Virus record (IMG/VR): IMGVR_UViG_2778261180_000002 | Span: 1-42,016 of that record | DNA: 42,016 nucleotides | From: a virus | Taxonomy: Duplodnaviria; Heunggongvirae; Uroviricota; Caudoviricetes | Strand: one strand, 5' to 3' | Shown here: one piece after another, positions 1,874 to 18,525 of the stretch | Numbering within the stretch: position 1 is the first letter of the stretch | How the letters are laid out: each line of letters starts with the position of its first letter | Program-made: the position numbers and the translations under genes | Notes under the pieces: generated by a model | Seen by the model: only the letters and a program-made list of their open reading frames with translations | Databases searched by the model: none | What the model was told of the DNA's origin: nothing

Positions 1874-2070
1874 TACTGGCTGCGACATTTTTGAATAAAA
1901 GCGTCGACATTTCGGCGCTCATAACGAACTACTTTTGCACTGAAACGAATTGGTGCCAGGATAGCCCGATGACGATGCTTAATATTCCACTCACATAGCG
2001 TTTTCTGTGTAATACCTAACTTTTGGCATACTTCATCCGGGGTGAGTAAATCGTCGGGTTTCTCGCTCAT
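1870..2070 (-). CDS. small HTH DNA-binding protein, excisionase-like
   Basis: 66-aa ORF. ATG 2068-2070 overlaps the stop of the upstream helicase gene (ATGA coupling). Helix-turn-helix-like segment LTPDEVCQKLGITQKTL. Position next to integrase. Confidence 0.5.
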   Translation of the reverse strand: MSEKPDDLLTPDEVCQKLGITQKTLCEWNIKHRHRAILAPIRFSAKVVRYERRNVDAFIQKCRSQY

Positions 2071-3461
2071 GCTATACCTCTCTTTTTCATGGCATCGAGC
2101 AGGATGTCCTGCACTGTTCGTTTTGAGTTGCGCCGCTCCATCACCATTTCGTCCATAGTGTCGGCAGCAATAATGTGGTGAATAAATACCGGACGATTGT
2201 GTCCGGCCTGTATCTGTCTGGTTGGGCCGATACGTTCAATAATTTGCTGATACTGCTCCAGGTCCCACCAATGTGAGAAAAATACCAGTATGTTTCCGCC
2301 GTCCTGCATGTTCAGACCGTGGCCCGCGCTGGCTGGGTGTGCAAAGAGAACAGGAATCTTTCCGGAATTCCAGTCACGTAGTGTCTGTGGATCCTGGTCG
2401 AGGTGACGACCGCGAGGAAATGCTTTAAGCAAGCGTTCAAGATCGTGTTTCCAGTGATAAGCAACCAGCACAGGTGCGCCAGCTGCTTCGGTCAGTATGC
2501 TGTCCAGCGCCTGTAGTTTGGTGTCATGCAGTTCTGACCAACTTCCGGTGTCATCTGTGTATACTGCGCCGCTAGCGATTTGCAGACACTTCAGTGTCTT
2601 TGCCGCGGCGTTCGGTGCTTCGATGCCTTCGCCATTCAGCTCGAGGAACATTTCCTTTTCCATTTCACGATACTGCTGACGGGCCTTCGGCGGCATATCC
2701 ACGCGGATTACGTTATGGATGGGGTCTTTGATATCGAACCAGTCGGCCGCATCCAGCGAGAGAGTCACATCGGCTAACGCTCGCTGTATTTCACCCTGTG
2801 AGTGAGCAAACGGCTCCAGTTTGGTCCAGCTCTGCCCCGGAAACTGTATTGAGTTGAACCAGCGTGAGGTAAACGCGCCGTAAGTGCGCCCGAGACGTTG
2901 CCCCTGGTCCACAAACCACGATTGTCCCCACAAATCTACCAGGCCGTTCGGTGCTGGCGTACCGGTGAGATTTATCCAGCGCCGGACATACTTATGCGCC
3001 ACTTTGCCAAGCGCCGCCGCGCGCTTACCACCACCTCGCAGCCGGAAGGATTTTAGCCGGGTGCTTTCATCTGGAATGACAGTACCGAACGGCCATCGTT
3101 CTCCCAATTCTTCAACCAGCCAGACAAGGCTATCGTAGTTGATTGTGAACACGCTTGCGTTGCTGTTCGCCAGCGCCATAGAGCGCGCTTTGGCATTACC
3201 AACAATTGGCTGCACCTCGATATTGCGTAAATGCCCCCACTTCACTGCTTCATCCGGCCAGGTGTTTGCTGCAACACGTAGCGGTGCGAGGACCAGTGCG
3301 GGGCGTGTTTCTGCCCCTGCCATAAAGAGATCTTCCAGCGCAGTGAGCGTTGCCACGGTTTTACCCATTCCCATACCTGCCCAGATGTTGCCGCGCATGA
3401 TGTCGATTTCGTGGCTGATAATGAGATCTTGGTAGGGGCGTGGCTTAAAAGCTTGTGTCAT
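2067..3461 (-). CDS. SNF2-family DNA helicase
   Basis: 464 aa. Walker A GMGKT, DExx box (VIPDEST), C-terminal helicase motifs. Typical phage replication-module helicase. Confidence 0.8.
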   Translation of the reverse strand: MTQAFKPRPYQDLIISHEIDIMRGNIWAGMGMGKTVATLTALEDLFMAGAETRPALVLAPLRVAANTWPDEAVKWGHLRNIEVQPIVGNAKARSMALANSNASVFTINYDSLVWLVEELGERWPFGTVIPDESTRLKSFRLRGGGKRAAALGKVAHKYVRRWINLTGTPAPNGLVDLWGQSWFVDQGQRLGRTYGAFTSRWFNSIQFPGQSWTKLEPFAHSQGEIQRALADVTLSLDAADWFDIKDPIHNVIRVDMPPKARQQYREMEKEMFLELNGEGIEAPNAAAKTLKCLQIASGAVYTDDTGSWSELHDTKLQALDSILTEAAGAPVLVAYHWKHDLERLLKAFPRGRHLDQDPQTLRDWNSGKIPVLFAHPASAGHGLNMQDGGNILVFFSHWWDLEQYQQIIERIGPTRQIQAGHNRPVFIHHIIAADTMDEMVMERRNSKRTVQDILLDAMKKRGIA

Positions 3462-3493
3462 AATGCTTTTCCACTCTTAAAGGAATAGAACAA

Positions 3494-3820
3494 ATGTTTA
3501 TTCAAGTTACACCCGGAATCACCATTGATGACTTCTTCAAGAATGGCGGTACGATTGAATACGAGATAACATCTGATGAAATTTCGCCAAATAATCCAAA
3601 TTTCGAAAATTGGGACTCCATAAAAGATTCTTTATATACTGGCTTTTATTTCCCTGTTTCTGACGCAATAACTCAGGGAGCTGTCGAGGCTACTCAAGTT
3701 ATCAACTATGCTGATGCCTGGACCAAACTGATTACGCGCGTTGAACGTCTTGGGGGTGAGGTTATTTATAAGAAATTAAATTCTGGAAAATTCTCTGCAA
3801 CTTTTAAGCTGAACATTTAA
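3494..3820 (+). CDS. hypothetical protein, AT-rich antisense moron
   Basis: 108-aa ORF, ATG 3494 with AAGGA about 10 nt upstream. Opposite orientation to the surrounding minus-strand operon. Visibly lower GC than flanks. No recognisable motifs. Confidence 0.5.
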   Translation: MFIQVTPGITIDDFFKNGGTIEYEITSDEISPNNPNFENWDSIKDSLYTGFYFPVSDAITQGAVEATQVINYADAWTKLITRVERLGGEVIYKKLNSGKFSATFKLNI

Positions 3821-4085
3821 TAATTTCCTCCAGATTTTTGCTATCCAGCACCACCACGGTAAAGCCCAGCTCGCGCAGCCGCTTGTGCTCGCGCAACTGG
3901 TCGGCGCGTGGTGCTTTGCCGGGTGCTTTGCATTCAACGAAAACAAGACGGCCGCCGGGTAGCAGAACAATGCGATCTGGTACCGAGCGGCGACCAGGTG
4001 ATATGAACTTAAAGGCGACCCCACCAGCCTTTTTCACTTCGTCGACGAGATGCTTCTCGATTAGGTTTTCACGTTCATAGGCCAT
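3804..4085 (-). CDS. VRR-NUC domain nuclease
   Basis: Motifs match recalled VRR-NUC pattern (LLPGGRLVFVECKAPGK). ATG 4083-4085 preferred; alternative ATG 4110-4112 would overlap the upstream gene by 38 nt. Confidence 0.65.
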   Translation of the reverse strand: MAYERENLIEKHLVDEVKKAGGVAFKFISPGRRSVPDRIVLLPGGRLVFVECKAPGKAPRADQLREHKRLRELGFTVVVLDSKNLEEIIKCSA

Positions 4086-4374
4086 CTGAATCCCACTCTT
4101 CAAAAAGCACATTCAATTCCAGTTTCTCTGCCAACGCATTTTCTGCACGTGCGCCGGCAGAGTACTCCCACTCTTTGAGCATATAAATCGTATCGGCACA
4201 GCGAAGCATTGCGAGGCAGATGTCCATGTACTGAGCCTGTGTCAAACCATCGGGTAAAGTTGCGGGGTTAAGCACAACATATCCCTTGTCCGTTAGCCTC
4301 TTTGCTGCGTAATGAAAGGCCGGGCGGTTAAATTGCTCGTAACCGCTCATCGGCCCGGCAATGTAAACGATCAT
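4075..4374 (-). CDS. DUF4406 / nucleoside 2-deoxyribosyltransferase-like protein
   Basis: 99 aa. N-terminal MIVYIAGPMSG motif typical of this fold. ATGA overlap with the upstream gene. Confidence 0.55.
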   Translation of the reverse strand: MIVYIAGPMSGYEQFNRPAFHYAAKRLTDKGYVVLNPATLPDGLTQAQYMDICLAMLRCADTIYMLKEWEYSAGARAENALAEKLELNVLFEEWDSDGL

Positions 4375-4586
4375 TCTTCGACCGCCTTACGCTTTTCACG
4401 CATATTCTGCATCAGGCAAAAATCAGATCTGCGTTCACTCCATTCCTGATTCAGTTCGTGATGTGATTCGCGGTTGGCTTTTGCCCAGACCTTCGCTGCC
4501 CGGTCATATTCGCCGGATTGTTCAAGTCGCAAAGCCTCCCTTGCAGCCCTGTAATAAAGTGGATTATCCCGGTATTTAAATGACAT
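4371..4586 (-). CDS. hypothetical small protein
   Basis: 71-aa ORF with ATG and AAGGA about 9 nt upstream; coupled to the downstream gene. Function unknown. Confidence 0.5.
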   Translation of the reverse strand: MSFKYRDNPLYYRAAREALRLEQSGEYDRAAKVWAKANRESHHELNQEWSERRSDFCLMQNMREKRKAVEE

Positions 4587-4591
4587 AGGAG

Positions 4592-6667
4592 TTAATCCTT
4601 ACGGTAGCGGTACGCCTCAAAACCGCCAGCGTTCAGTGGGATATCGGGCGCCCATTCGGGGTTAGTGGAGAGAAGCGCGGAAAGCGCTTTATCGTTGAAA
4701 TCTTCTGTGTCAGGTGATTCGGTGATCACCTCGTCGTGTACCGTCAGCACAATGCTGTAACCGGCATCTTCGATAAGCGGCATGTTTCCGGCCAGAACGT
4801 CGCGGGCGGCCGCCTGGGTGACGTTCTCCACCAGCTTTCCGCCGTAGGTTTTGAGTCGTTGCCATTTACGCGAATAAGAGTTAACACCCATGTAGGTGAT
4901 ATTCCCTTGTTCGATAACCGGAGACGGGTAGCATACAGCGCGTCCGGATGGTAGCTGTATGCGCAGCCACGCGCCATCGCGGCGGATTTTAAGATAACCG
5001 CAATACAATGTTTTTTGCGGTGTGGCGATTGCTGTGCGGACAGTGCGCTCCAGCTCGTACCAGAAATCGCAGGTCGCCGGGTGCGCCCTGCGCCAGAGAC
5101 GTTTAAGTGAGTCGCAGGCGATAAATACCCGTTCAGAAAGCCCGTAGGTTGACTTACGTTTAACCGATTCGTCGTACCAGCTTTTCGCCTCGCGGATAAC
5201 ATCGTGGGGAATGTTTGGCAGTGCGGCGTTCGCCAGCTCGTCGAGATCGAGACCGTAAACCAGAGCAAAAGTGATGAAAGCCGATACACCACCTCCATAA
5301 CCCAGACCGAGTTCCATGACTTTACCGATCTGACGCATGTGTTTATCAACATCATCTGGTGCAATATCGAAAACTTTTGCATACGCTAGTTTATATAAGT
5401 CCGGACCCGTTCCGGCGTCGTACTCTCTGAATGCATTCAGTTTCCATTCTTCTCCCGCCAGCCATGCCAACATACGGCCTTCAATGTTCGACAAGTCACT
5501 TACCACCAGTTTTTTGCCTGTTGGCGCGATAATGCAGCCACGTAACGCTGAACTGGTTAGTTCCATGATATTGTCAAACAGCAGGTCTGCACATCCGGCT
5601 TTCAGTGCTTCGATGCCTTCGTCTATTTGTTCCTGTTTTAGTGAAGGGCGGGGAAGATTCTGGGGCTGGAATAGCCGTCCGGCCCAACGACCGGTACGTG
5701 ACGCCCCGCAGAACTGTAGCGTACCGCGTAAGCGCCCGTCGTGGCTTACGCCTTTCATCAGTGCCTTGTATTTACTGGTGCTGGTAGTACTGGCTTGCAG
5801 GCGGATAGCCAGTAATTCTTTCACGGCAGATGGTAAATTGGGGTCGGCTATACGACGTTCCAGGGTGCTGCGTTGCATGTCTGGCAGCTCCACACCGTAG
5901 GATTCAACAATGTGCTTAATCAACGCGTCTCGTTGTGTGGCTGCCTGCACTTCGCCATCAGTCATTTCCTGTGTACGCTTTGCCAGGCGCTTTTGCTCCT
6001 GGTCTACCGCTTCGATCGCAGCGCGCGCGAGTTGCATGTCCATGCAGACGCCCCGGTCGTTGATCTGTTGATCACGATGCCAGAGCGCCAGCTCTGTCCC
6101 CTGATAATTCCACTTCGGCAGACGTTTATAGACTTCGCGCATTGCCTCAATATCCAGTCCGGCGTAAGCAACAAAGCGCCGCCATTCTTCCGGGTGGGTT
6201 TTGCTGGTGGCACGGCGCAGTTTGCTGTTTTTCGGGCGTGGCTTACAGAACAGCTGGATCAGCGCTTTACCGTCTTTGTTCTTCGCTTTGTCTTGCGGGA
6301 CGCCGAGTATTTCGCAGAGTTCCCCCAGAGACCCCGGGAGACCGTGCGCCAGCGCCTGCACCATTGTGTCTCGCCAGCGTTTGGCACTACCTGCAACAAC
6401 ACATTGGGGAGTGTGCAGCAATGCATGGCGCAACATGGTGCGATCGAAATGGCTGTTGTGTGCATATATTAGTACGCTCTCATCGCTGAGAGCTGTCAGT
6501 AGTCGTGTCGGCAAGTTATAGTCTGTGGTTAAATCGTGTACGCTGACGGGGTCTTCGTCGATTGCCCATGCGAATAACATGATTTCGACTCCTTCTGCAT
6601 AGACATGGGTGCCGTTTTTTATTGGGATTTCGCTGAAAGTTTCGAGGTCTAACCAAAGTTTTTGCAT
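4592..6667 (-). CDS. family A DNA polymerase (PolA/T7-like) with 3'-5' exonuclease domain
   Basis: Exo motif LWLDLETFS near N-terminus; polymerase motifs ([16 protein letters not shown]). Start taken as ATG 6665-6667; the track start at 6709 is a TTG inside a terminator hairpin and is unlikely. Confidence 0.85.
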
Positions 6668-6696
6668 CAAGTAAGGACCCGTTGGATTTAATAAAT

Positions 6697-6724
6697 AAAA
6701 AGCCGCCAAAATGGCGGCTTTTTA
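6697..6724. terminator. bidirectional rho-independent terminator-like hairpin
   Basis: AAAAA-GCCGCC-AAAAT-GGCGGC-TTTTT. A-run on one side and T-run on the other, so it is terminator-like on both strands. On the minus strand it directly follows the SIR2-like gene stop (6744) and precedes the polymerase start. Confidence 0.7.
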
Positions 6725-6743
6725 TAACCGAAGTTAAGAATGC

Positions 6744-8225
6744 TTAATATGATAAATAATCATACAAGCATAAAAGTCGCCTGTATTGGGTATCAATTTT
6801 ATGCCCTGGTTTTGTTAAATAATCTCGTAGTTGTTTCAATGAAATAGTATCATTTAGTACGCAATACATAATCGTGTTAGCAACTTTATACTCTTTCGTT
6901 TCTTTTAGTATTTCATCAATAGACACAGCCTCACTCTTACATGTTTTAATTCGAGAAAGGTTACCAATGATTTTATCTAGCTGCCGTTTTCTGTATGTCT
7001 CGGTATTTTCTAGTTCAGGGCAGATAGAACTAAAAGCGTATATTGGAAAGTGTTCGCTATTAGCTATGGTTTGCTTATTCAGTAATGCGATAAGCTGAGA
7101 GTTTGCTTCGTCAACTATTTTAAAATAGTTCTGTATCATTTCAGATTTTGTTTGATAAACATATTGTACGGTTCTTTCTGAACCAACAGCAATGACCATT
7201 TCATCATTGCGAAGTTCATCTAAATTTTCTGTAATTTTAACCTTTATCTCACCACCACTTTTGATGGTACTCCAAACTTTTTGAACCTTTCTTATGTCCA
7301 TTGCGGATACTGGCAAAACTAGTCCAGAGATGGCATCATATACAGCTTTGTAATTGTTTGTTTTTATTTTGTTTATTCTTATGATAGACATGCCTTCTAT
7401 ATCTATGTCATGCTCCGTAATTTCAGTTGACATGCTGTCTTTTTCGTATTCAACCAAAAGAAAATTATCTTTTATCCTTTTTGCAAGTTCGGTATTTAAG
7501 TCAACGTATGAGAATATGGTTTTTAATAAGTACTTAATGTTTTTATCGCTAATACTATACCCTATAAATATGATAGGGTTGTGTATGAATATTGAGAGTA
7601 ATTGAGCGCGAATTAACTCATATTTATTGTCGAAGTTTGCGTAGTCTTCACCTGTGATAATTATGTTGTTAGGATCACTAACACAGCCATGTATTTTGTA
7701 AACTGAACCGTATGGGTTACTTAAAAGAATGTTGTTACCAATCAGTGGGTTAAATTCGAAGATATTCTCTACGAGTTGGTCGTAGTTTGTTGTAATGATG
7801 GAGCCTATGTTTTTTCTTGTTTTTATTAAGCTGTTTATTTCCTCCATCATTGACTCTTTTATCTTTAGGTCTTTAAGTATTGAAGTTAAATAAATTTTGA
7901 ATCGACTTAGTTTTTTTCCTTTTTTCATGTGCTCATAGAAAACATCATTGATGTCTTTGAACTTACCGTTACGATCTTCTGCCAGCTTTTTATTAAAAAT
8001 ATCTTCAAGTTTTGTAGCTAAGATATCATATCGATAGTCGTCACCTTCTAGGCTTTCAGCTTTCAAATCGTAGTAAAACTCAGCATTACCGGTTAGTTCC
8101 ATTGCGACACTCAAAAGAAGACCATCCCAGCTAAATGAGTTTTCTAGATACCGTAGGCTAAATCCTGTTCCAATGAATAGAACAGGGTGGTTTTTATAGT
8201 GATTTACAAACTCTTGGATTTCCAT
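6744..8225 (-). CDS. SIR2-like (SIR2_2 / ThsA-type) domain protein with unassigned C-terminal domain; candidate defence moron
   Basis: ORF open from GTG 8246; ATG 8225 (MEIQEF...) likely the real start. N-terminal half carries SIR2_2-type motifs VLFIGTGFS, IITTNYDQL, KIHGCVS...IITGEDY. C-terminal ~250 aa has no recognisable domain. Markedly AT-rich versus flanks; own downstream terminator. Confidence 0.65.
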   Translation of the reverse strand: MEIQEFVNHYKNHPVLFIGTGFSLRYLENSFSWDGLLLSVAMELTGNAEFYYDLKAESLEGDDYRYDILATKLEDIFNKKLAEDRNGKFKDINDVFYEHMKKGKKLSRFKIYLTSILKDLKIKESMMEEINSLIKTRKNIGSIITTNYDQLVENIFEFNPLIGNNILLSNPYGSVYKIHGCVSDPNNIIITGEDYANFDNKYELIRAQLLSIFIHNPIIFIGYSISDKNIKYLLKTIFSYVDLNTELAKRIKDNFLLVEYEKDSMSTEITEHDIDIEGMSIIRINKIKTNNYKAVYDAISGLVLPVSAMDIRKVQKVWSTIKSGGEIKVKITENLDELRNDEMVIAVGSERTVQYVYQTKSEMIQNYFKIVDEANSQLIALLNKQTIANSEHFPIYAFSSICPELENTETYRKRQLDKIIGNLSRIKTCKSEAVSIDEILKETKEYKVANTIMYCVLNDTISLKQLRDYLTKPGHKIDTQYRRLLCLYDYLSY

Positions 8226-8336
8226 ACCGATTCTCAAAGTTGACACGTAATACCTCTATAAAAACAAATAGCCGTAAAAATTCCAATAGCTTTTTGGATC
8301 TCGCCCGGCGTGTAACCGGGCGTCTATGAAGAAGGG

Positions 8337-8885
8337 TTAAATCAGTGCTTCAGCATCAGCACCTTCGCTGATATCGTCGAAATCGTCAGCGCTTGCCACT
8401 CCGCCGCCAGCGAATGCATCGCCGTCTCGCAGGAACTGGACTCCGCCGAGTGAGGCATTAATGCGTTTACCGAAATTATTGTCCTGTGCCCAGATATCGA
8501 TAACGGCGTTTACATAGCACCCTGCATAGGGACGTCCGTCAGCCTGAATTAGTGGCGAACGATCGCGATCAAGAACAGCTGGGCGCGCTTTGTTAGCAGC
8601 GTTCAGGAAGAAATTGCCGGGAAAGCCTTCATACTCTGCTTTTTCATCACCATCATGCAGGCACAGATTGAGTTTTTTCTCCAGCTGGTTATAAATGGAC
8701 TCCCACTTCTCTCCCCATTTTTCCTTCGCTACCTGCTTCATAGCTTTACGGATTTCTTCCAGTTGTGGGTGTTTGGGAGACATTAAAAATACTGCGGAGA
8801 AACGCGGATCGCCTTCGCCGTTTACAGTTTTAGCTTCAAACAGAGACGGGAAGGCCAGACGAACATTGTTCAGCTTCAGTTTCAT
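8337..8885 (-). CDS. putative phage ssDNA-binding protein (DUF2815-like)
   Basis: 182 aa beginning MKLKLNNVRLAF, as I recall for DUF2815 phage proteins. Acidic C-terminal tail (DDFDDISEGADAEALI) like SSB C-termini. Adjacent to the nuclease gene. Confidence 0.5.
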   Translation of the reverse strand: MKLKLNNVRLAFPSLFEAKTVNGEGDPRFSAVFLMSPKHPQLEEIRKAMKQVAKEKWGEKWESIYNQLEKKLNLCLHDGDEKAEYEGFPGNFFLNAANKARPAVLDRDRSPLIQADGRPYAGCYVNAVIDIWAQDNNFGKRINASLGGVQFLRDGDAFAGGGVASADDFDDISEGADAEALI

Positions 8886-8900
8886 GGGGATTTCCTTAAA

Positions 8901-10202
8901 TCAGATGAGGTCTGCGGTTAGCGTATCGTCGGATACGTCGTCGAAATCATTTACAGGGTTGATATTGAGTGCGGGGCGTGGGTCTGACTCGGGAACGACG
9001 GTGGGTTTACCATCAGCTCGTGTTATCAGTGCCTCGACTTTTGACCAACGGCGCGGACTGGCCTTTTTGATAAGTTTTTCGGCTTTTGTGGGACTAATAA
9101 GTTTAAAGTCGAATACTTCTTCAGTTTTGTACCTGAACTGGTCCTTCAGAAGTGCGCGAGCTGCCTCTTCGTCACTCCAGGCCCGGTTACCTTGTTTTCC
9201 TGTTACCAGTTTAAACCCCGGTACCGGATGTCCGGCATTGAGTTCATTGTGAACCCGGTCCCGTACTGCCTTTAGCCAGGATTCAATAAAGTCGGCCTGG
9301 CTATAGATCTCTGCAAGCTGCTCAATGGTTAACAGAGGTACACGTGCGCTGGCATTGGTGATTATTTCGCTGACAGGCTTTGTCAGATCTTCAAAATCGC
9401 TGGCCGCTGTTTGTAAATGCTGCATTTTCTGGGCAGTGCAAATAGCTTTTGCTTTACAGAAGCGGCACTGTTTTTCTCCAGGTATGAAGTTTTCCAGCGG
9501 TAGTGTCTCAATGCCTTCGCATTCAGCAATATTGAGAACAAGGATCGCACTGGTTGCGGCCTCCAGTGCCCGTTCACCGAAAGACTGAAGTTCCTGTACG
9601 GTTAAAGACCATTCTGAAACGTGGTTGAGCCTTGGTTGGTGAATAAATAATCTTACAGTCTCAAAGTCATACAGCATGCTGAATTGTTCGAGAGCACCCA
9701 GAGCATACAGTTGTAGTTGCTCATTTTGTTCTGCGTCAATGCGGACGCCTTTGCCATATTTCAGGTCGTGGATTTGTAATTCGTTACCAGCGATGATTAT
9801 GCCGTCGGCAGTTCCGAAAGATTCTTCCACCCCCGTTATATGTGAGAAATCAACACGTTGTTCAACCAATAGCTCATTATTTTGTGCAAGAGTCCAGACC
9901 GTATCAACATACCGGCCAACGGCTTCGACCATTTCATCATCCACCTGTGGGCCAGATGTATCATCAGGATTTTCGCGAAGGGGGTATGAGCCGAGAAACA
10001 TAGAAACATTGCATCCGGCGTAGTGTTCCGGGTGGCTTTGCCTGTTTCGTAGAACTTTTTCAGCAAGCGCGTGCGCTGCAGTGCCCTCGATTGCAAAAGT
10101 TGTTTCTTTATCCGGTTGTGTGGCCTCCAGCGCCAGACTTCCTGGGCAGCGCATCCATCGATGCGCCGATGACGGGGAAAGTCGTGCATGAACGTCTGGC
10201 AT
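8901..10202 (-). CDS. PD-(D/E)XK nuclease, Cas4-like (DUF2800-like)
   Basis: 433 aa. N-terminal [15 protein letters not shown] and a C-terminal Cys cluster ([10 protein letters not shown]) fit recalled DUF2800/Cas4-like phage exonucleases. Confidence 0.65.
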
Positions 10203-11874: not shown

Positions 11875-12567
11875 TCAGAGCAGAACGGAGTACCAAAATA
11901 CTTGGCCTATAATCCTGATTTTATTAGCCTCTTGATTAAAATACTCTTCGTCTGCGTATTCATCCCTATTGAAAGAGCGTATCCGGAGTCCGCTTGGGAG
12001 ACGGTACAATAGTTTGACACGAAGTAATCCGTCTTGGTCTATAGCGTACATTTGACCATCTTTTACACCTGTTTTTGATGTATCTATGCCGACGACAGCG
12101 CCATCCGGTAATACCGGTTCCATGCTGTTGCCGTGGATACTGACACAAGCCGCACAATTTACGTCAACACCTGCTTTGCGCAACGTTGAACGGGCGAATC
12201 TTAACTTACATCCCATTCGATCTATATCAACATAAGTACCATTACCGGCAGATAGCTCAATTTCCTGATAGAACGGTATTTCCACTTCATCATCCTCTAA
12301 TGGCGTTGATGAGTCCCATACAGAAAACCCTCCCTCAACTTGTGCATTAGAATGTATTTCTTTGGTATCGCTTGTTTTGCCTGAAAGTAGCCACTCTGGA
12401 GAAACGTTCAATGCTTCGGCCAGATTTATAAGATTTTTCCCGTTAGGTGTGGTGTTTCCGGATTCCCATTGTGAAATCGTGGCTTTAGTTAGACCAATAC
12501 GTTTAGCAAGCGCATCCTGCGTTAGGTGGACATTGCGACGAGCCTCGCGAATACGATCATTAATCAT
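11875..12567 (-). CDS. cI: CI-like repressor (HTH_XRE + S24 LexA-like peptidase)
   Basis: N-terminal HTH (LTQDALAKRIGLTKATISQWESG). C-terminal S24 motifs (GNSMEP ... later Lys). Divergent from a Cro-like gene. Confidence 0.9.
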   Translation of the reverse strand: MINDRIREARRNVHLTQDALAKRIGLTKATISQWESGNTTPNGKNLINLAEALNVSPEWLLSGKTSDTKEIHSNAQVEGGFSVWDSSTPLEDDEVEIPFYQEIELSAGNGTYVDIDRMGCKLRFARSTLRKAGVDVNCAACVSIHGNSMEPVLPDGAVVGIDTSKTGVKDGQMYAIDQDGLLRVKLLYRLPSGLRIRSFNRDEYADEEYFNQEANKIRIIGQVFWYSVLL

Positions 12568-12680: not shown

Positions 12681-12866
12681 ATGAAAAAAGCAGAAGCAAT
12701 TGAGCTTGCAGGAAGTAAAGCGAAACTAGCGAGACTATTGAAGGTTTCCAAAGGAGCCGTATCTCAATGGGGGGAGGAAATCCCAGAGTTAAGAGCTCTT
12801 CAACTTGAAAAGATTTTGGAGCAAAAAAATGTAGTCAAACAAAAAGGCTTAACCCATGTCCGATAG
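12681..12866 (+). CDS. cro: Cro-like HTH regulator
   Basis: 61 aa with HTH (KAKLARLLKVSKGAVSQW). Divergent from cI. Its stop overlaps the primase start. Confidence 0.75.
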   Translation: MKKAEAIELAGSKAKLARLLKVSKGAVSQWGEEIPELRALQLEKILEQKNVVKQKGLTHVR

Positions 12867-15066
12867 CAAACCATGGGGAGCTACGCCTGATGAGTGGTTT
12901 CATTTCGACCTGGTATTGGGGAGAACTGATCATCTTCTGCCAGTTGTATGTAACCCCGGTGCGACCATATCCCCTGATAGTAAACTGAAAGCGTTGGGTA
13001 AAACGCCGAGTCGCTATAACCGGGACCGCCAGGTCACCGGTATTGCTCAATGGACCGGGCATGTTGTTACTGAGCATGATTTTGCCCGCTGGTCGAATGA
13101 ACCGGATTATGGCATCTGCGTGCGTACAGGCCATGGCTGGCTGGCGCTGGACTGCGATAGCGAAGATGAAGACATTCAGGCGGATATTCGCAAAACGCTT
13201 GTGCAACTTCTGGGGGAGTTGCCGCCGCGACGCTGGCGAGCAAACAGTAATAAGTGTCTGTATCTGCTGGCCGTTGATGGTGATTTCCGTAAGCGTATCC
13301 ATCGCCTGGCGGGGGATATGGGCGTTATCGAGTTGCTGGCGAACGGGCAGCAGTTCGTTGCCTGCGGTACGCACAGCAGCGGCGCGCGTATTGAATGGGA
13401 CGGCGGTTTGCCGGATGAACCTCCGGCTATTACTGGTGAGCAGCTTGAAACGCTGTGGCAGCGCCTGGCTGAACAACTCCCTGTGTCGGTAACCACCGAA
13501 GCGGGCAACACGAAGATGCGCGACCGATCAGCATTCACGCCCGGCGCGACGGATGATACAGCTGAATATCTTGATGCCAATGGCTGGACGCTGCTGGATG
13601 GCGCAAACGGTGAACGATATATCCGCTGTCCGTTTGAAGACGGCCACAGTAGCGGGGGCGATCCAACAAGTACAGTTTATTTTCCTGCGGGAACTGCGGG
13701 CTTTGAGCAGGGGCATTTTAAATGCCTGCATGCCAGTTGTGCGCATCGTGATGACGGAGATTTCCTGAATGCCATCGGGATCCGCAACGACGATTTCGAA
13801 GATCTGACCAGCACCGAAGTGGCGGAACCTTTACCGCTGCCTGCTTTCGAGCGTGATAAATGGGGGCGTATCGAGGCAACCATCAGCAACGCAGCCAAAG
13901 CAGTAGTACGCCCTGATTTTGTGGACATCGATATTCGCTTTGACCTGTTCCGCGACGAAATCATGTTTGCCCCGGCAGGATCCGGACAATGGCGGGCATT
14001 CACCGATGCGGATTATGCGCGCCTGCGCATCACGATGGAAAAGCGGGGATTTAAACCTGTTGGCCGTGAACTTATTCGCGATGTGGTGTTACTTGCAGCC
14101 GATGAACAACCATTCGATTCAGCGATCACCTGGCTGAACGGACTGGAGTGGGATGGGGTGCCGCGCATCGAATGTTTCTACCATACGCACTTCGGTACCG
14201 CCGACACGCCTTATACCCGTGCGGTGTCTATGTACATGTGGACCGCGTTGGCGGGGCGAGTACTGGAGCCAGGCATCAAAGCGGATATGGTGCCGATCCT
14301 CGTTGGTCCGCAGGGCTGCGGTAAGTCTTCCGGAGTGGAGGCACTGAGCCCTGATCCTGCGTTTTTTACTGAAATCTCTTTTGCCGAAAAAGACGATGAT
14401 CTCGCTCGAAAAATGCGTGGTCGGCTGGTGGCAGAGATTGGTGAACTGCGCGGACTTAATACCAAAGAGCTGGAGTCAATCAAAGCGTTTGTGACGCGTA
14501 CTCACGAAAACTGGATCCCGAAATACCGGGAGTTCGCCACCCAGTTTCCTCGTCGCCTGGTGTTCGTTGGTACCACCAATGAGGACGAATTCCTTGCGGA
14601 CAAGACTGGTAACCGTCGCTGGCTCCCCGTGGAAGTGTCGAAAGTCGACGTGAAAGCGATAAAAAGAGATCTCCTTTTACTTTGGGCTGAGGCTCGTGAG
14701 GTGTTTCAGCGTCTGGGGGGTATCCAGTTCCGTGAGGCTGAACAACTGGCAGCGAGTGTCCATGAACAGTACACCATCAAGGATGCTTGGCTTGAAACGG
14801 TAGAGAAATGGCTCGACACGCCAGACCTGATGACTAATGAACTTCCGCGAAATTGCGAATTTTTACGCGCAAGTGATGTTTTGCGTGATGCGATTGGGCT
14901 AAATCCTGACCGCATCGGAAAACGCGAAGAAATGCGAATTAGTAATGTTTTGCAAAATTGCGGGTATAAGCGTGCCCAAAGGCGAATTGGGGGGAAAAAA
15001 TGCAAGGTTTGGGAACCGCTGGAACCACCTAAAAGAGAAGGTGGTTCCACCTTGCAGGCCTTGTGA
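12856..15066 (+). CDS. bifunctional primase-polymerase / VirE-type P-loop NTPase (replicative primase-helicase)
   Basis: 736 aa. N-terminal prim-pol-like region; Cys/His zinc-binding segment (CPFEDGH ... CLHASCAH); Walker A GPQGCGKSS in a VirE/D5-like C-terminal domain. Confidence 0.8.
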   Translation: MSDSKPWGATPDEWFHFDLVLGRTDHLLPVVCNPGATISPDSKLKALGKTPSRYNRDRQVTGIAQWTGHVVTEHDFARWSNEPDYGICVRTGHGWLALDCDSEDEDIQADIRKTLVQLLGELPPRRWRANSNKCLYLLAVDGDFRKRIHRLAGDMGVIELLANGQQFVACGTHSSGARIEWDGGLPDEPPAITGEQLETLWQRLAEQLPVSVTTEAGNTKMRDRSAFTPGATDDTAEYLDANGWTLLDGANGERYIRCPFEDGHSSGGDPTSTVYFPAGTAGFEQGHFKCLHASCAHRDDGDFLNAIGIRNDDFEDLTSTEVAEPLPLPAFERDKWGRIEATISNAAKAVVRPDFVDIDIRFDLFRDEIMFAPAGSGQWRAFTDADYARLRITMEKRGFKPVGRELIRDVVLLAADEQPFDSAITWLNGLEWDGVPRIECFYHTHFGTADTPYTRAVSMYMWTALAGRVLEPGIKADMVPILVGPQGCGKSSGVEALSPDPAFFTEISFAEKDDDLARKMRGRLVAEIGELRGLNTKELESIKAFVTRTHENWIPKYREFATQFPRRLVFVGTTNEDEFLADKTGNRRWLPVEVSKVDVKAIKRDLLLLWAEAREVFQRLGGIQFREAEQLAASVHEQYTIKDAWLETVEKWLDTPDLMTNELPRNCEFLRASDVLRDAIGLNPDRIGKREEMRISNVLQNCGYKRAQRRIGGKKCKVWEPLEPPKREGGSTLQAL

Positions 15067-15190
15067 CAAGCGGGTCGGAACTACTGGAACCACTGGAACC
15101 GCCTTTCTACTAGAAACCCCATATATATATATAAGTCGATTGAGGGAAAGGTTAGGAAAAGGTGGTTCCAGGTGGGGGCAGGTGGTTCCA
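15011..15190. repeat. iteron array with AT tract; candidate origin of replication
   Basis: GGAACC direct repeats with 9-bp phasing (15012, 15021; then 15077, 15086, 15095). Near-palindrome GGTGGTTCCACC (15040-15051). (AT)6-7 tract at 15121-15133. Three 10-bp phased inverted-orientation repeats GGTGGTTCCA/GGTGGGGGCA/GGTGGTTCCA (15161-15190). Overlaps the primase 3' end. Confidence 0.6.
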
Positions 15191-15320
15191 CTCCGAATTA
15201 GCAACTTTTTGCATTTTGATACATGCAATATGCGAATCGGAACTGCGTTATCCACACCCACGGATAAACAGACGTAGTTCTCAGAAAATTTTTTCGTAGC
15301 AAAACGTAGAGGTCAGAGCT

Positions 15321-15743
15321 ATGCGTAATATTCAACAGGTTTTAGAGCGCTGGGGTGGCTGGGCAGCGAGTGAAGGTGGTAGCGTCTACTTTCCTCCTGT
15401 TGCAGCCGGGTTTAAGAATCTGCTACCCGCGACGCAGTCTGGAAGGCTGAAATGCAGTGACAATGACGGTCTTATCATCAACTCCGCTATGAGCTGCCTG
15501 AAGAAAAAAGATCCGTATCTGTGCACGCTCCTTGAGTGGCATTACGTCCAGGCCATGCCCGTGCGGACGATGGGTGAGAAGCTCGGCGTATCTCACACCC
15601 ACGTTCTGAAGAGGCTTCAGGCGGCAGAGGGATTTATTGACGGTTGCTTAGCCATGCTGGATGTGGTGCTCGAAATGGATCAGTCGGTTCAGTCAAAGCC
15701 TCAGGTTATCAGGACGTTGCGTAGGAGCTGCTCGGCGGCATAA
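15321..15743 (+). CDS. Q-type late antiterminator (Phage_antitermQ-like)
   Basis: 140 aa beginning MRNIQQVLERWGGWAA, which resembles the N-terminus I recall for E. coli prophage Q-like antiterminators (QuuD-type). Located just upstream of the lysis cassette. Confidence 0.65.
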   Translation: MRNIQQVLERWGGWAASEGGSVYFPPVAAGFKNLLPATQSGRLKCSDNDGLIINSAMSCLKKKDPYLCTLLEWHYVQAMPVRTMGEKLGVSHTHVLKRLQAAEGFIDGCLAMLDVVLEMDQSVQSKPQVIRTLRRSCSAA

Positions 15744-15774
15744 TATCCAGCAATCAATCACGTAAGGGAACCAG

Positions 15775-16116
15775 ATGGCTCTGATCAGCGTTCGCAACAG
15801 ATTTGAAAGCTTCATGGAACAGAGGTACCCAGACCTGTCGTTGCAGGTCAAAGGTAATATTGGCGCATCAATGAAGGCTCAACTTGGCATCAGGGTTGAA
15901 CGAGAATTGTACAGTGAAGATGTTACTTACTGTGATTCAGCAGTTCAGTTGATGTGGACACTCTTTCAGGCAGGTGTTCTGGCCGAACGAAAAGCTACCA
16001 GCGTTACGCTTCCTGCGCTGAAGGCAAAGCCGGATAGCTTCTACGATGCGGGTTATAACGAAGGTATTCAGGACTGTCGTAAACATCTGACGGCATCAGG
16101 CATCAAGGTAAGATAA
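15775..16116 (+). CDS. hypothetical protein
   Basis: 113-aa ORF 31 nt after the Q-like gene, followed by a terminator. No recognisable motifs. Confidence 0.45.
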   Translation: MALISVRNRFESFMEQRYPDLSLQVKGNIGASMKAQLGIRVERELYSEDVTYCDSAVQLMWTLFQAGVLAERKATSVTLPALKAKPDSFYDAGYNEGIQDCRKHLTASGIKVR

Positions 16117-17952: not shown

Positions 17953-18525
17953 ATGACTAAGAAGCTGAAAGCAAAACACGAGGTGTTTTGTCGCGAGTTT
18001 CTTGTCGATCTGAATGCTACACAAGCAGCTATTCGCGCAGGCTACGTCTCCAGGCGAGCACATGTTACGGGGGCTGAACTATACGGTAAACCTGAGATAC
18101 GCGCCCGTATTAACGAGCTAAAGCAGGAGCGTATTGATCAACTGGGCATTGATGCGAATTATGTGCTGATGCGACTGGTTGAGATCGACAGGCTCGATGT
18201 GGCTGACATCCTGGAGGACGATTTAAGTATTAAGCCTCTGTCTGCGTGGCCGGAATCGTGGCGTCGGTACCTGAGTGGATTTAACCTCGCTGAAATGTTT
18301 GAGGGGCGAGGAGATGACAGAGAAATGGTCGGGATCCTTAAAAAGATTAAGTGGCCTGATAAGGTTAAAAACCTTGAGTTGCTTGGGCGTCATGTTTCTG
18401 TTCAGGCGTTTAAAGACAACGTCAAAAATGAAGTGACTGGCGCTGATGGAGGACCAGTCAGAACAGAAATTACCAACTTAACGCCGGAGCAGGCTGCAGA
18501 GGCGTATAGAAAAATGATGGGCTAA
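17953..18525 (+). CDS. terminase small subunit
   Basis: 190 aa with N-terminal [27 protein letters not shown], characteristic of Terminase_2-type small subunits. Directly upstream of the large subunit. Confidence 0.7.

Follow-up and report, generated by a model that had tools for sequence, protein, structure and literature searches.

The subject of this study is a repeat-rich element at positions 15011-15190 of a 42,016-nucleotide stretch of viral DNA (IMG/VR record IMGVR_UViG_2778261180_000002, hereafter the window), which is a complete temperate phage integrated in Escherichia coli. The element lies across the 3' end of a replication gene, rep, and is very probably (we put the probability at about 0.85) the vegetative replication origin of the prophage. 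It is of the type found in the pathogenicity islands of Staphylococcus aureus (SaPIs) and in phage-inducible chromosomal islands (PICIs), and would be served by the adjacent self-loading protein Rep, which joins a primase-polymerase (Prim-Pol) domain to a superfamily 3 (SF3) helicase. The original prediction, which read phased iterons around an AT-rich element beside an initiator gene as a candidate origin, is supported by the homology of Rep to a SaPI Rep as well as by the layout of the element.

Results

The iteron array

In the 180 bp of the element there are eight 9-mers with a GGAAC core and one degenerate copy, with the consensus TGGAACCAC (Table 1). They are arranged as an upstream cluster, a left array of direct units and a right array of inverted units, the last two on either side of a spacer that is a candidate DNA-unwinding element. 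As rep ends at 15066, the first three iterons are within its coding sequence, and the others are in the 254-bp gap before the antiterminator gene Q. The direct GGAAC(C) repeats that had been noticed with a 9-bp phasing in two blocks (15011 and 15020; 15076, 15085 and 15094) are confirmed, as are the near-palindrome and the AT tract. The further claim of three inverse repeats with a 10-bp phasing holds for the two perfect copies at 15162 and 15182, while the copy at 15172 is degenerate and matches the consensus at only 6/9 positions. It was also right that the element spans the 3' end of rep and the gap that follows, but the limits given to it were too small: the unit runs from about 14965 to about 15231.

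The clustering of the iterons is far beyond chance. Six of the seven TGGAACC sites in the window, and all five sites of the full consensus, fall in 15020-15190, and the seven GGAACC that occur within 200 bp compare with a maximum of four in 1000 first-order Markov simulations. There is no second iteron cluster elsewhere in the window. No alternating AT run other than the (AT)6A tract in the spacer reaches 8 bp in the window, and nearest-neighbor energies place this tract at rank 1 of 42,004 among 12-bp duplexes, the least stable of all; the A+T content of the spacer (15105-15159) is 67%, against 51% for the window. The GC skew, which is uninformative for a prophage, has no switch at the site.

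Table 1. Coordinates in the window of the origin elements, of rep and of the neighboring genes
Feature	Position	Strand	Remarks
SNF2-like helicase gene	2067-3461	-	
Family-A DNA polymerase gene	4592-6709	-	
Enc34-type single-stranded DNA-binding protein gene	8337-8885	-	
DUF2800/PD-(D/E)XK nuclease gene	8901-10202	-	
S24-type repressor gene	11875-12567	-	
cro	12681-12866	+	
rep	12856-15066	+	736 aa: Prim-Pol (aa 53-188), VapE/SF3 helicase (aa 427-639), predicted C-terminal DNA-binding domain
Predicted recognition helix codons	14920-14958	+	aa 689-701, REEMRISNVLQNC; AlphaFold2; invariant among E. coli specificity types
Predicted beta-hairpin wing codons	14965-15018	+	aa 704-721, YKRAQRRIGGKKCKVWEP; AlphaFold2
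Specificity cassette	14974-15231		block differing between near-identical E. coli prophages (wing codons and whole origin); DNA alignment
Upstream cluster	15011-15049		within the rep 3' end; two copies direct, one inverted
Direct iteron GGGAACCGC	15011-15019	+	7/9 to consensus
Direct iteron TGGAACCAC	15020-15028	+	9/9; 9-bp period from the 15011 copy
Near-palindrome GGTGGTTCCACC	15040-15051		
Inverted iteron GTGGTTCCA	15041-15049	-	inside the near-palindrome
Left iteron array	15076-15102	+	direct, strict 9-bp period, three units
Left array unit CGGAACTAC	15076	+	7/9
Left array unit TGGAACCAC	15085	+	9/9
Left array unit TGGAACCGC	15094	+	8/9
Spacer and candidate DNA-unwinding element	15103-15161		59 bp
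(AT)6A tract	15121-15133		within the spacer
Right iteron array	15162-15190	-	inverted, 10-bp period, three positions
Right array unit GTGGTTCCA	15162	-	9/9
Right array unit GTGGGGGCA	15172	-	6/9, degenerate
Right array unit GTGGTTCCA	15182	-	9/9
Antiterminator gene Q	15321-15743		after the 254-bp gap 3' of rep
Small terminase gene	17953-18525		

The putative initiator protein Rep

Rep matches two Pfam families, VapE (PF05272, E-value 2.4e-60) and Prim-Pol (PF09250, 2.1e-10), and has no match in NCBIfam. A phmmer search of the PDB with Rep gives a sole match, the structure of SaPI1 Rep1 bound to DNA (PDB accession code: 7PDS), with an E-value of 8.4e-34 over aa 393-657. The AlphaFold2 model of aa 369-736 has a pLDDT of 93, and when this model is used in a Foldseek search the top structure is again 7PDS (TMq 0.77, E-value 2e-23), with the helicase regions of NrS-1, of the African swine fever virus PrimPol and of poxvirus D5 as the runners-up. 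The helicase part of Rep is homologous to SaPI1 Rep1.

The C-terminal domain of the model has the topology helix-helix-beta-hairpin (helices 672-680 and 689-701, hairpin 704-711/714-721), with a pLDDT above 90. A Foldseek search with the isolated domain returns mostly winged-helix proteins (Stf76, PadR, MarR-like, TubR and RTP), none of them significant (E-values of at least 0.1). In what follows, the second of these helices is taken as the predicted recognition helix and the hairpin as the predicted wing.

Conserved layout in related phages

To compare relatives we use a survey of 25 genome loci and 80 viral contigs, all anchored on the conserved peptide ...NCGYKR (nt 14973 of the window). 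It contains 95 distinct origin sequences with fixed offsets from this anchor: first two direct copies (about +47 and +57) and an inverted one (about +78), then three more direct copies (about +112, +121 and +130), the CCCC(AT)n motif (about +156) and three inverted copies (about +198, +208 and +218). The layout statistics are based on the 75 distinct relatives in which the CCCC(AT)n anchor is kept. Every one of the 75 has direct copies followed by one inverted copy, then two to four direct copies, the AT tract, and one to four inverted copies, and the upstream cluster follows the pattern "+(+)(+)-" in 75/75. The spacing in the left array is 9 bp in 135 of 136 neighboring pairs. In the right array it is 9-10 bp, or 19-20 bp around a degenerate unit, and the asymmetry between a 9-bp period on the left and a 10-bp period on the right is kept across iteron types. 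So are CCCC(AT)nAAGTCG and AAAGGTTAG in the spacer, with an (AT)n length that varies by 2-4 bp among the E. coli types and from about four to eight repeats in the wider set.

The iterons themselves differ, with at least ten iteron sequences among the relatives. The comparison with related phages that had been proposed thus has a divided outcome for the expectation that the repeats would be conserved: the layout is conserved in all 75 relatives, whereas the repeat sequence is not, and co-varies with 15 residues near the C-terminus of Rep. Outside the E. coli prophages, six annotated phages with homologous or analogous genes have the same layout just 3' of the gene, each with its own repeat: Yersinia YeP4 (AGACAACCT), Hamiltonella APSE-1 (GTAACAACC), Caulobacter Jess A (GTAACCAC), Acidovorax ACF1 (TGTTCCTAC), Kosakonia Kc259 (TGGAACATA) and Escherichia phage vB_EcoM-683R1 (AGGTGACGG, at 4225-4500 of survey locus L007). 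The layout in the YeP4, APSE-1, Caulobacter, Acidovorax and Kosakonia phages was judged by eye.

The last phage of this list is a case of its own. Its Rep has only the Prim-Pol half in common with that of the window (62% identity, aa 1-321), the helicase half being of another SF3 subfamily (DUF5906), yet the origin layout is still the same. This combination indicates that the primase and the helicase-origin modules recombine independently.

A search of IMG/VR for the iterons of the window, which we call type A, finds 80 loci (83 matching stretches), of which 29 have the origin layout. All 29 contigs with the array in this layout encode Rep. Orphan origins or satellites that use type-A iterons were sought among the 80 loci and none was seen, the other 51 being unrelated stretches, tandem repeats in coding DNA among them. 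In the upstream cluster a third copy, GCGGAACCAC, is present in most type-A relatives but absent from the window. The middle unit of the right array is degenerate in all type-A relatives seen, and is a good copy in the two other E. coli types (B and C, described below).

The overlap of the upstream cluster with rep has an effect on the protein. The Rep tail reads ...EPRGTT in most relatives, as against ...EPPKREGGSTLQAL in the window and in locus L099, because the gain or loss of one 10-bp iteron in the 3' end of rep shifts the frame (15011-15066, compared with 4010-4043 of locus L003). In several iteron types the stop codon is inside the first iteron (GCG TAA CCACC). Gain and loss of iterons shift the reading frame of the tail, and what Rep carries past residue 722 or so is thus an incidental product of translating iteron DNA.

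A 20-nt direct repeat brackets the origin, with copies on the plus strand at 14935-14954 (CGAATTAGTAATGTTTTGCA) and 15194-15213 (CGAATTAGCAACTTTTTGCA) that are identical at 17/20 positions. The left copy codes for part of the predicted recognition helix of Rep; the right copy is just past the right array, and has a conserved offset in 78 of 97 distinct relatives. This repeat might be left over from a duplication, or might serve as a handle for recombination or as a priming site.

Concerted change of the iterons and the Rep wing

Do the iterons change together with the protein that would read them? Ten E. coli prophages with essentially identical flanks fall into three iteron types: type A has the iteron TGGAACCAC and the wing AQRRIGGKKCKVWEP (the window, O103, Rb-50 and 2013C-4465), type B has TGTACCAAC and VQRRIGGKMTRIFEA (four strains), and type C has TGTTACCAC and ETRRVEGKLMKVWRR (two strains). 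Between these types all copies of the iteron change, in the three clusters and in both orientations, with no change in the AT tract or in the motifs of the spacer. In the protein, aa 330-706 are identical at 375 of 377 positions among the E. coli prophages, whereas aa 707-721 are identical at only 6-8 of 15. This short segment is the sole protein segment that differs between iteron types, and the recognition helix is invariant. At the DNA level the differences are confined to the block listed in Table 1 as the specificity cassette, the flanks of which are about 100% identical. The concerted switch of the iterons with aa 707-721 argues strongly, on comparative grounds, for cognate recognition between Rep and its origin.

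The wider survey points the same way. Its 17 wing heptads map almost one-to-one onto iteron 9-mers, with a mutual information of 1.96 against a maximum of 1.04 in 5000 permutations (0/5000 reach the observed value); shared ancestry inflates this figure, and the E. coli series, with its near-identical background, is the cleaner evidence. Some of the correspondence can be followed residue by residue. The last wing position, W or F/Y, tracks CCAC or CAAC in the iteron, with APSE as the exception, and the residue pair that follows G-K varies with the iteron's 5' half: KC or KS goes with GGAA, VQ or VC with GTAA, LM with GTTA, MT with GTAC, and KM or KQ with GTCC.

In three IMG/VR contigs (L069, L080 and L064), TGTATCCAC and TGTAACCAC iterons are mixed under one wing, GKVLKVW, and this wing seems, from its sequence pairing, to tolerate A or T at iteron position 5.

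A broader proposal can be built on these observations. The wing (about the last 15 residues) and the origin of about 260 bp would form a portable cassette that is exchanged by recombination among prophages nearly identical elsewhere and exists in at least ten specificity types; the wing, not the helix, would set the specificity by a simple code; and the PICI-type architecture would be a widespread phage architecture and a source of satellite replicons. We give this proposal as a whole about even odds.

Discussion

Proposed mechanism

With the element as the origin, initiation may proceed as follows. Upon induction, rightward transcription would make Rep, and its passage through the origin may have a role of its own. 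The winged-helix-like C-terminal domains of Rep would bind the 9-bp iterons as duplex DNA, with the invariant recognition helix reading the constant bases and the variable wing (aa 707-721) reading the type-specific ones. The left (direct) and right (inverted) arrays would set Rep oligomers in opposite orientations at the two sides of the 59-bp spacer, where the (AT)6 tract is expected to melt, and two SF3 hexamers could load without a separate loader. The N-terminal Prim-Pol domain would then prime, and the phage family-A polymerase and single-stranded DNA-binding protein (SSB) would extend bidirectionally. The upstream cluster may serve in auxiliary binding or in autoregulation.

Several points weigh against this picture. 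The winged-helix assignment of the C-terminal domain rests on the topology of the AlphaFold2 model, and outside the (AT)6 tract the AT-richness of the spacer is only moderate. Shared descent and physical linkage partly confound the association of wing and iteron, since the wing and the origin are adjacent and would be passed on together whenever a cassette is exchanged. A strong hairpin is also predicted for the inverted arrays (15005-15200, z = -5.1). Finally, a literature search on this phage family found no marker-frequency, plasmid-maintenance or binding data.

Alternative explanations

The predicted hairpin leads to a different view of how the origin would be recognized, in which Rep assembles on a stem-loop or cruciform of about 100 nt that is formed by the opposed arrays. 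Alternating (AT)n tracts are prone to cruciform extrusion, and the concerted changes of the iterons resemble compensatory changes in a stem. There is also a precedent in plasmid pRN1, whose Rep has its domains in the same order; a stem-loop of about 100 nt located 3' of the gene is the essential origin, and a similar stem-loop is reported by the same authors 3' of the replication gene of Bordetella phage BIP-1 (PMC4234260). A stem, however, has no need for arms that are internally periodic, and with a 9-bp period on the left and a 10-bp period on the right it would have a bulge at each unit. The copy numbers of the two sides vary independently (2/3, 3/2, 4/3, 3/4), the middle right unit stays degenerate throughout the type-A relatives, and the motif recurs in a third, upstream cluster. 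Moreover, the homologous SaPI Rep binds iteron-containing origin DNA in gel shifts (PMC9371898). Recognition through a stem-loop alone is unlikely.

Two further explanations give the repeats a role other than initiation. An RNA element between rep and Q, such as a terminator, an attenuator or a processing hairpin, might time late expression: the repeats are in a transcribed gap before Q, a promoter and terminator scan predicts no promoter for Q, the RNA fold is predicted to be strong, and there is one terminator-like match at the palindrome. That match, however, is on the minus strand and at chance level (one found, 0.8 expected), the stems on the plus strand are not followed by a T-run, and the Rfam scan of 14500-15800 gives only a sub-threshold chance match that is outside the element. 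In Jess A, ACF1 and Kc259, among others, the same layout has a gene other than Q downstream, and an RNA element leaves unexplained both the 9-10-bp periodicity of the repeats and their covariation with 15 residues of Rep; we find it hardly credible. The repeats might instead bind Rep or another phage protein for autoregulation of rep or Q, for pac recognition or for partition. Iteron-binding initiators of iteron plasmids commonly autoregulate, and the upstream cluster has no obvious role in melting. Yet the small terminase gene is 2.8 kb away, and pac sites are usually in or near that gene; no partition genes are seen; the immunity proteins do not co-vary with the iteron type; and the AT tract between opposed arrays, together with the homology to a defined origin type, fits initiation better. 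A non-initiation role in place of the origin is therefore very improbable, and autoregulation could come on top of initiation instead of replacing it.

Two other candidates were considered and rejected. The repeats in the gap between cI and cro are unrelated to the iterons, and one Cro (WP_000170998.1) occurs with both iteron types A and B; these two facts together show that the iterons are not immunity operators for CI and Cro. The sole perfect DnaA box of the window (TTATCCACA, 15248-15256) is 58 nt past the last iteron, and was weighed as a core part of the origin. Only 21 of 97 distinct relatives have this box, which appears to travel with the Q leader and not with the origin, and it is absent from the 13 distant relatives examined, including APSE-1, the YeP4-like L112, ACF1 and Jess A. 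This box is part of an inverted TTATCC...GGATAA pair.

The sub-threshold match of the Rfam scan is in Q, at 15386-15426. It is to the c4 antisense RNA target a1b1, with 16.3 bits against a gathering threshold of 46.7 and an E-value of 0.36, and is probably due to chance.

Comparison with known systems

The reading of the element as an origin relies on a well-studied template. SaPI Reps are self-loading SF3 helicases that are also initiators, binding iterons through a C-terminal winged helix; the origin is directly 3' of rep and has 6-12 short iterons, in opposed sets of two or more to the left and right of an AT-rich region; and both SaPI1 Rep1, as a self-loading helicase-initiator, and the SaPI origin have been characterized by experiment (PMC9371898). 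When the window is set beside SaPI1 Rep1 and the SaPIbov1 origin (7PDS; PMC9371898), it has a homologous SF3 initiator, an origin directly 3' of rep (stop codon at 15064-15066), opposed iteron sets, each of two or more copies, that flank an AT-rich region, and a C-terminal domain, here predicted, that binds DNA and gives cognate specificity. The differences are that SaPI iterons are penta- or hexanucleotides and those of the window are 9-mers; that the primase of SaPI1 is a separate protein and here the Prim-Pol is fused (as it also is in SaPI5); that the origin here already begins within the coding part of rep, with one more cluster upstream; and that the window is no satellite but a full temperate phage that has a polymerase of its own.

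A closer case by host is the Gram-negative PICI EcCICFT073, also of E. coli, in which two iteron sets flank an AT-rich region 3' of the initiator (PMC6092414). Its rep-ori fragment replicated a conditional plasmid, deletion of rep abolished the maintenance of that plasmid, and deletion of the origin significantly reduced it (PMC6092414). The likeness is one of origin layout. That the window could itself be a PICI element was considered and rejected, because such satellites have no virion and lysis genes of their own and rely on a helper phage, whereas the window has lysis and terminase genes and a presumed structural module and is a full prophage.

The predicted domain order of Rep (Prim-Pol, SF3 helicase and C-terminal winged helix) is shared with ORF904 of pRN1 and with BIP-1/BPP-1, whose origins are likewise just downstream of the gene and form an inverted repeat, which the authors read as a stem-loop without iterons (PMC4234260). 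In the window, by contrast, each arm is a periodic array of iterons, with a period that is not the same on the two sides and a copy number that varies independently, which differs from a stem-loop of about 100 nt without iterons. Caulobacter phage Jess A, one of our survey relatives, belongs to the genus Rauchvirus. Phage P4 needs two separated cis sites, ori and crr, whereas the window has only one iteron cluster. The P4 alpha protein also combines a primase, an SF3 helicase and a C-terminal winged-helix domain that binds short repeats at the origin (via PMC4234260). Its primase, however, is of the Toprim type, as opposed to the Prim-Pol (PF09250) of Rep.

With phage lambda the window shares the order repressor, cro, replication gene and Q, and the overlap of the iterons with the initiator gene beside an AT-rich region. 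In lambdoid phages the specificities of initiator and iterons co-vary. Lambda iterons, however, are in the middle of O and are read by the N-terminal domain of its product, whereas here they are at and after the 3' end of the gene and would be read by a C-terminal domain of the helicase. There is no match to the lambda O and P families among the early-region proteins scanned, the sole replication gene between cro and Q is that of the Prim-Pol/VapE protein, and no recruitment of DnaB is implied. Classical iteron plasmids (RepA, pi, TrfA) have direct iterons of 17-22 bp, DnaA boxes and loading of the host DnaB, in contrast to the opposed 9-mers and the initiator that is itself a helicase in the window. 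A recent parallel is the Enterococcus phage Abitsa, with a self-loading helicase homologous to PriRep5 of SaPI5 and seven 10-bp iterons around an AT-rich region (PMC13517437, 2026). The Abitsa origin is likewise only predicted, and it differs in that the phage is lytic and Gram-positive, has a Rep of a different subfamily, and comes with no comparative covariation evidence.

Significance

This kind of origin is already known from SaPI/PICI replicons, pRN1 and P4 alpha, and its presence here would not surprise a replication specialist. A literature search found no description of it for APSE, for the YeP4-like phages or for the lambdoid prophages of E. coli with a VapE-type protein. A probable origin is now located for a common family of E. 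coli and enterobacterial prophages, for the YeP4-like Yersinia phages and for APSE, a defensive phage of aphid symbionts; in the APSE genomics paper the origin was placed by a skew tool only. The layout that is regarded as a hallmark of PICIs is also found in full-size phages of Gamma-, Beta- and Alphaproteobacteria, which bears on the origins of satellite replicons. What is added is the compact wing-plus-origin cassette with its ten or more types. It provides a natural allelic series of near-identical Reps that differ in 15 residues, each with its own iteron, and makes the origin recognition of a self-loading SF3 helicase and the evolution of replicon specificity testable. A practical side is the prospect of compact, mutually orthogonal rep-ori pairs.

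Prophage context

The window is 98.6% identical to a prophage of E. coli O103:H2 strain 12009, and no fewer than 102 of the 5,426 complete genomes of E. coli have a related prophage; the relatives YeP4 and APSE-1 are isolated phages. Besides rep, it carries an integrase, the repressor and cro, Q, a holin, a lysin, its own DNA polymerase and an SSB. The lysis and terminase genes come after Q, and the long run of open reading frames beyond the terminase gene, which were not annotated individually, is taken to be the structural module.

On the minus strand, a leftward early operon (2067-10202) encodes a partial replisome in an APSE-like arrangement, with the four genes that are listed first in Table 1. 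Between the polymerase and SSB genes of this operon (6744-8246, minus strand) there is a gene for a 500-aa protein with a SIR2_2 domain (PF13289, E-value 1.9e-22), which may be a defense or anti-defense cargo gene.

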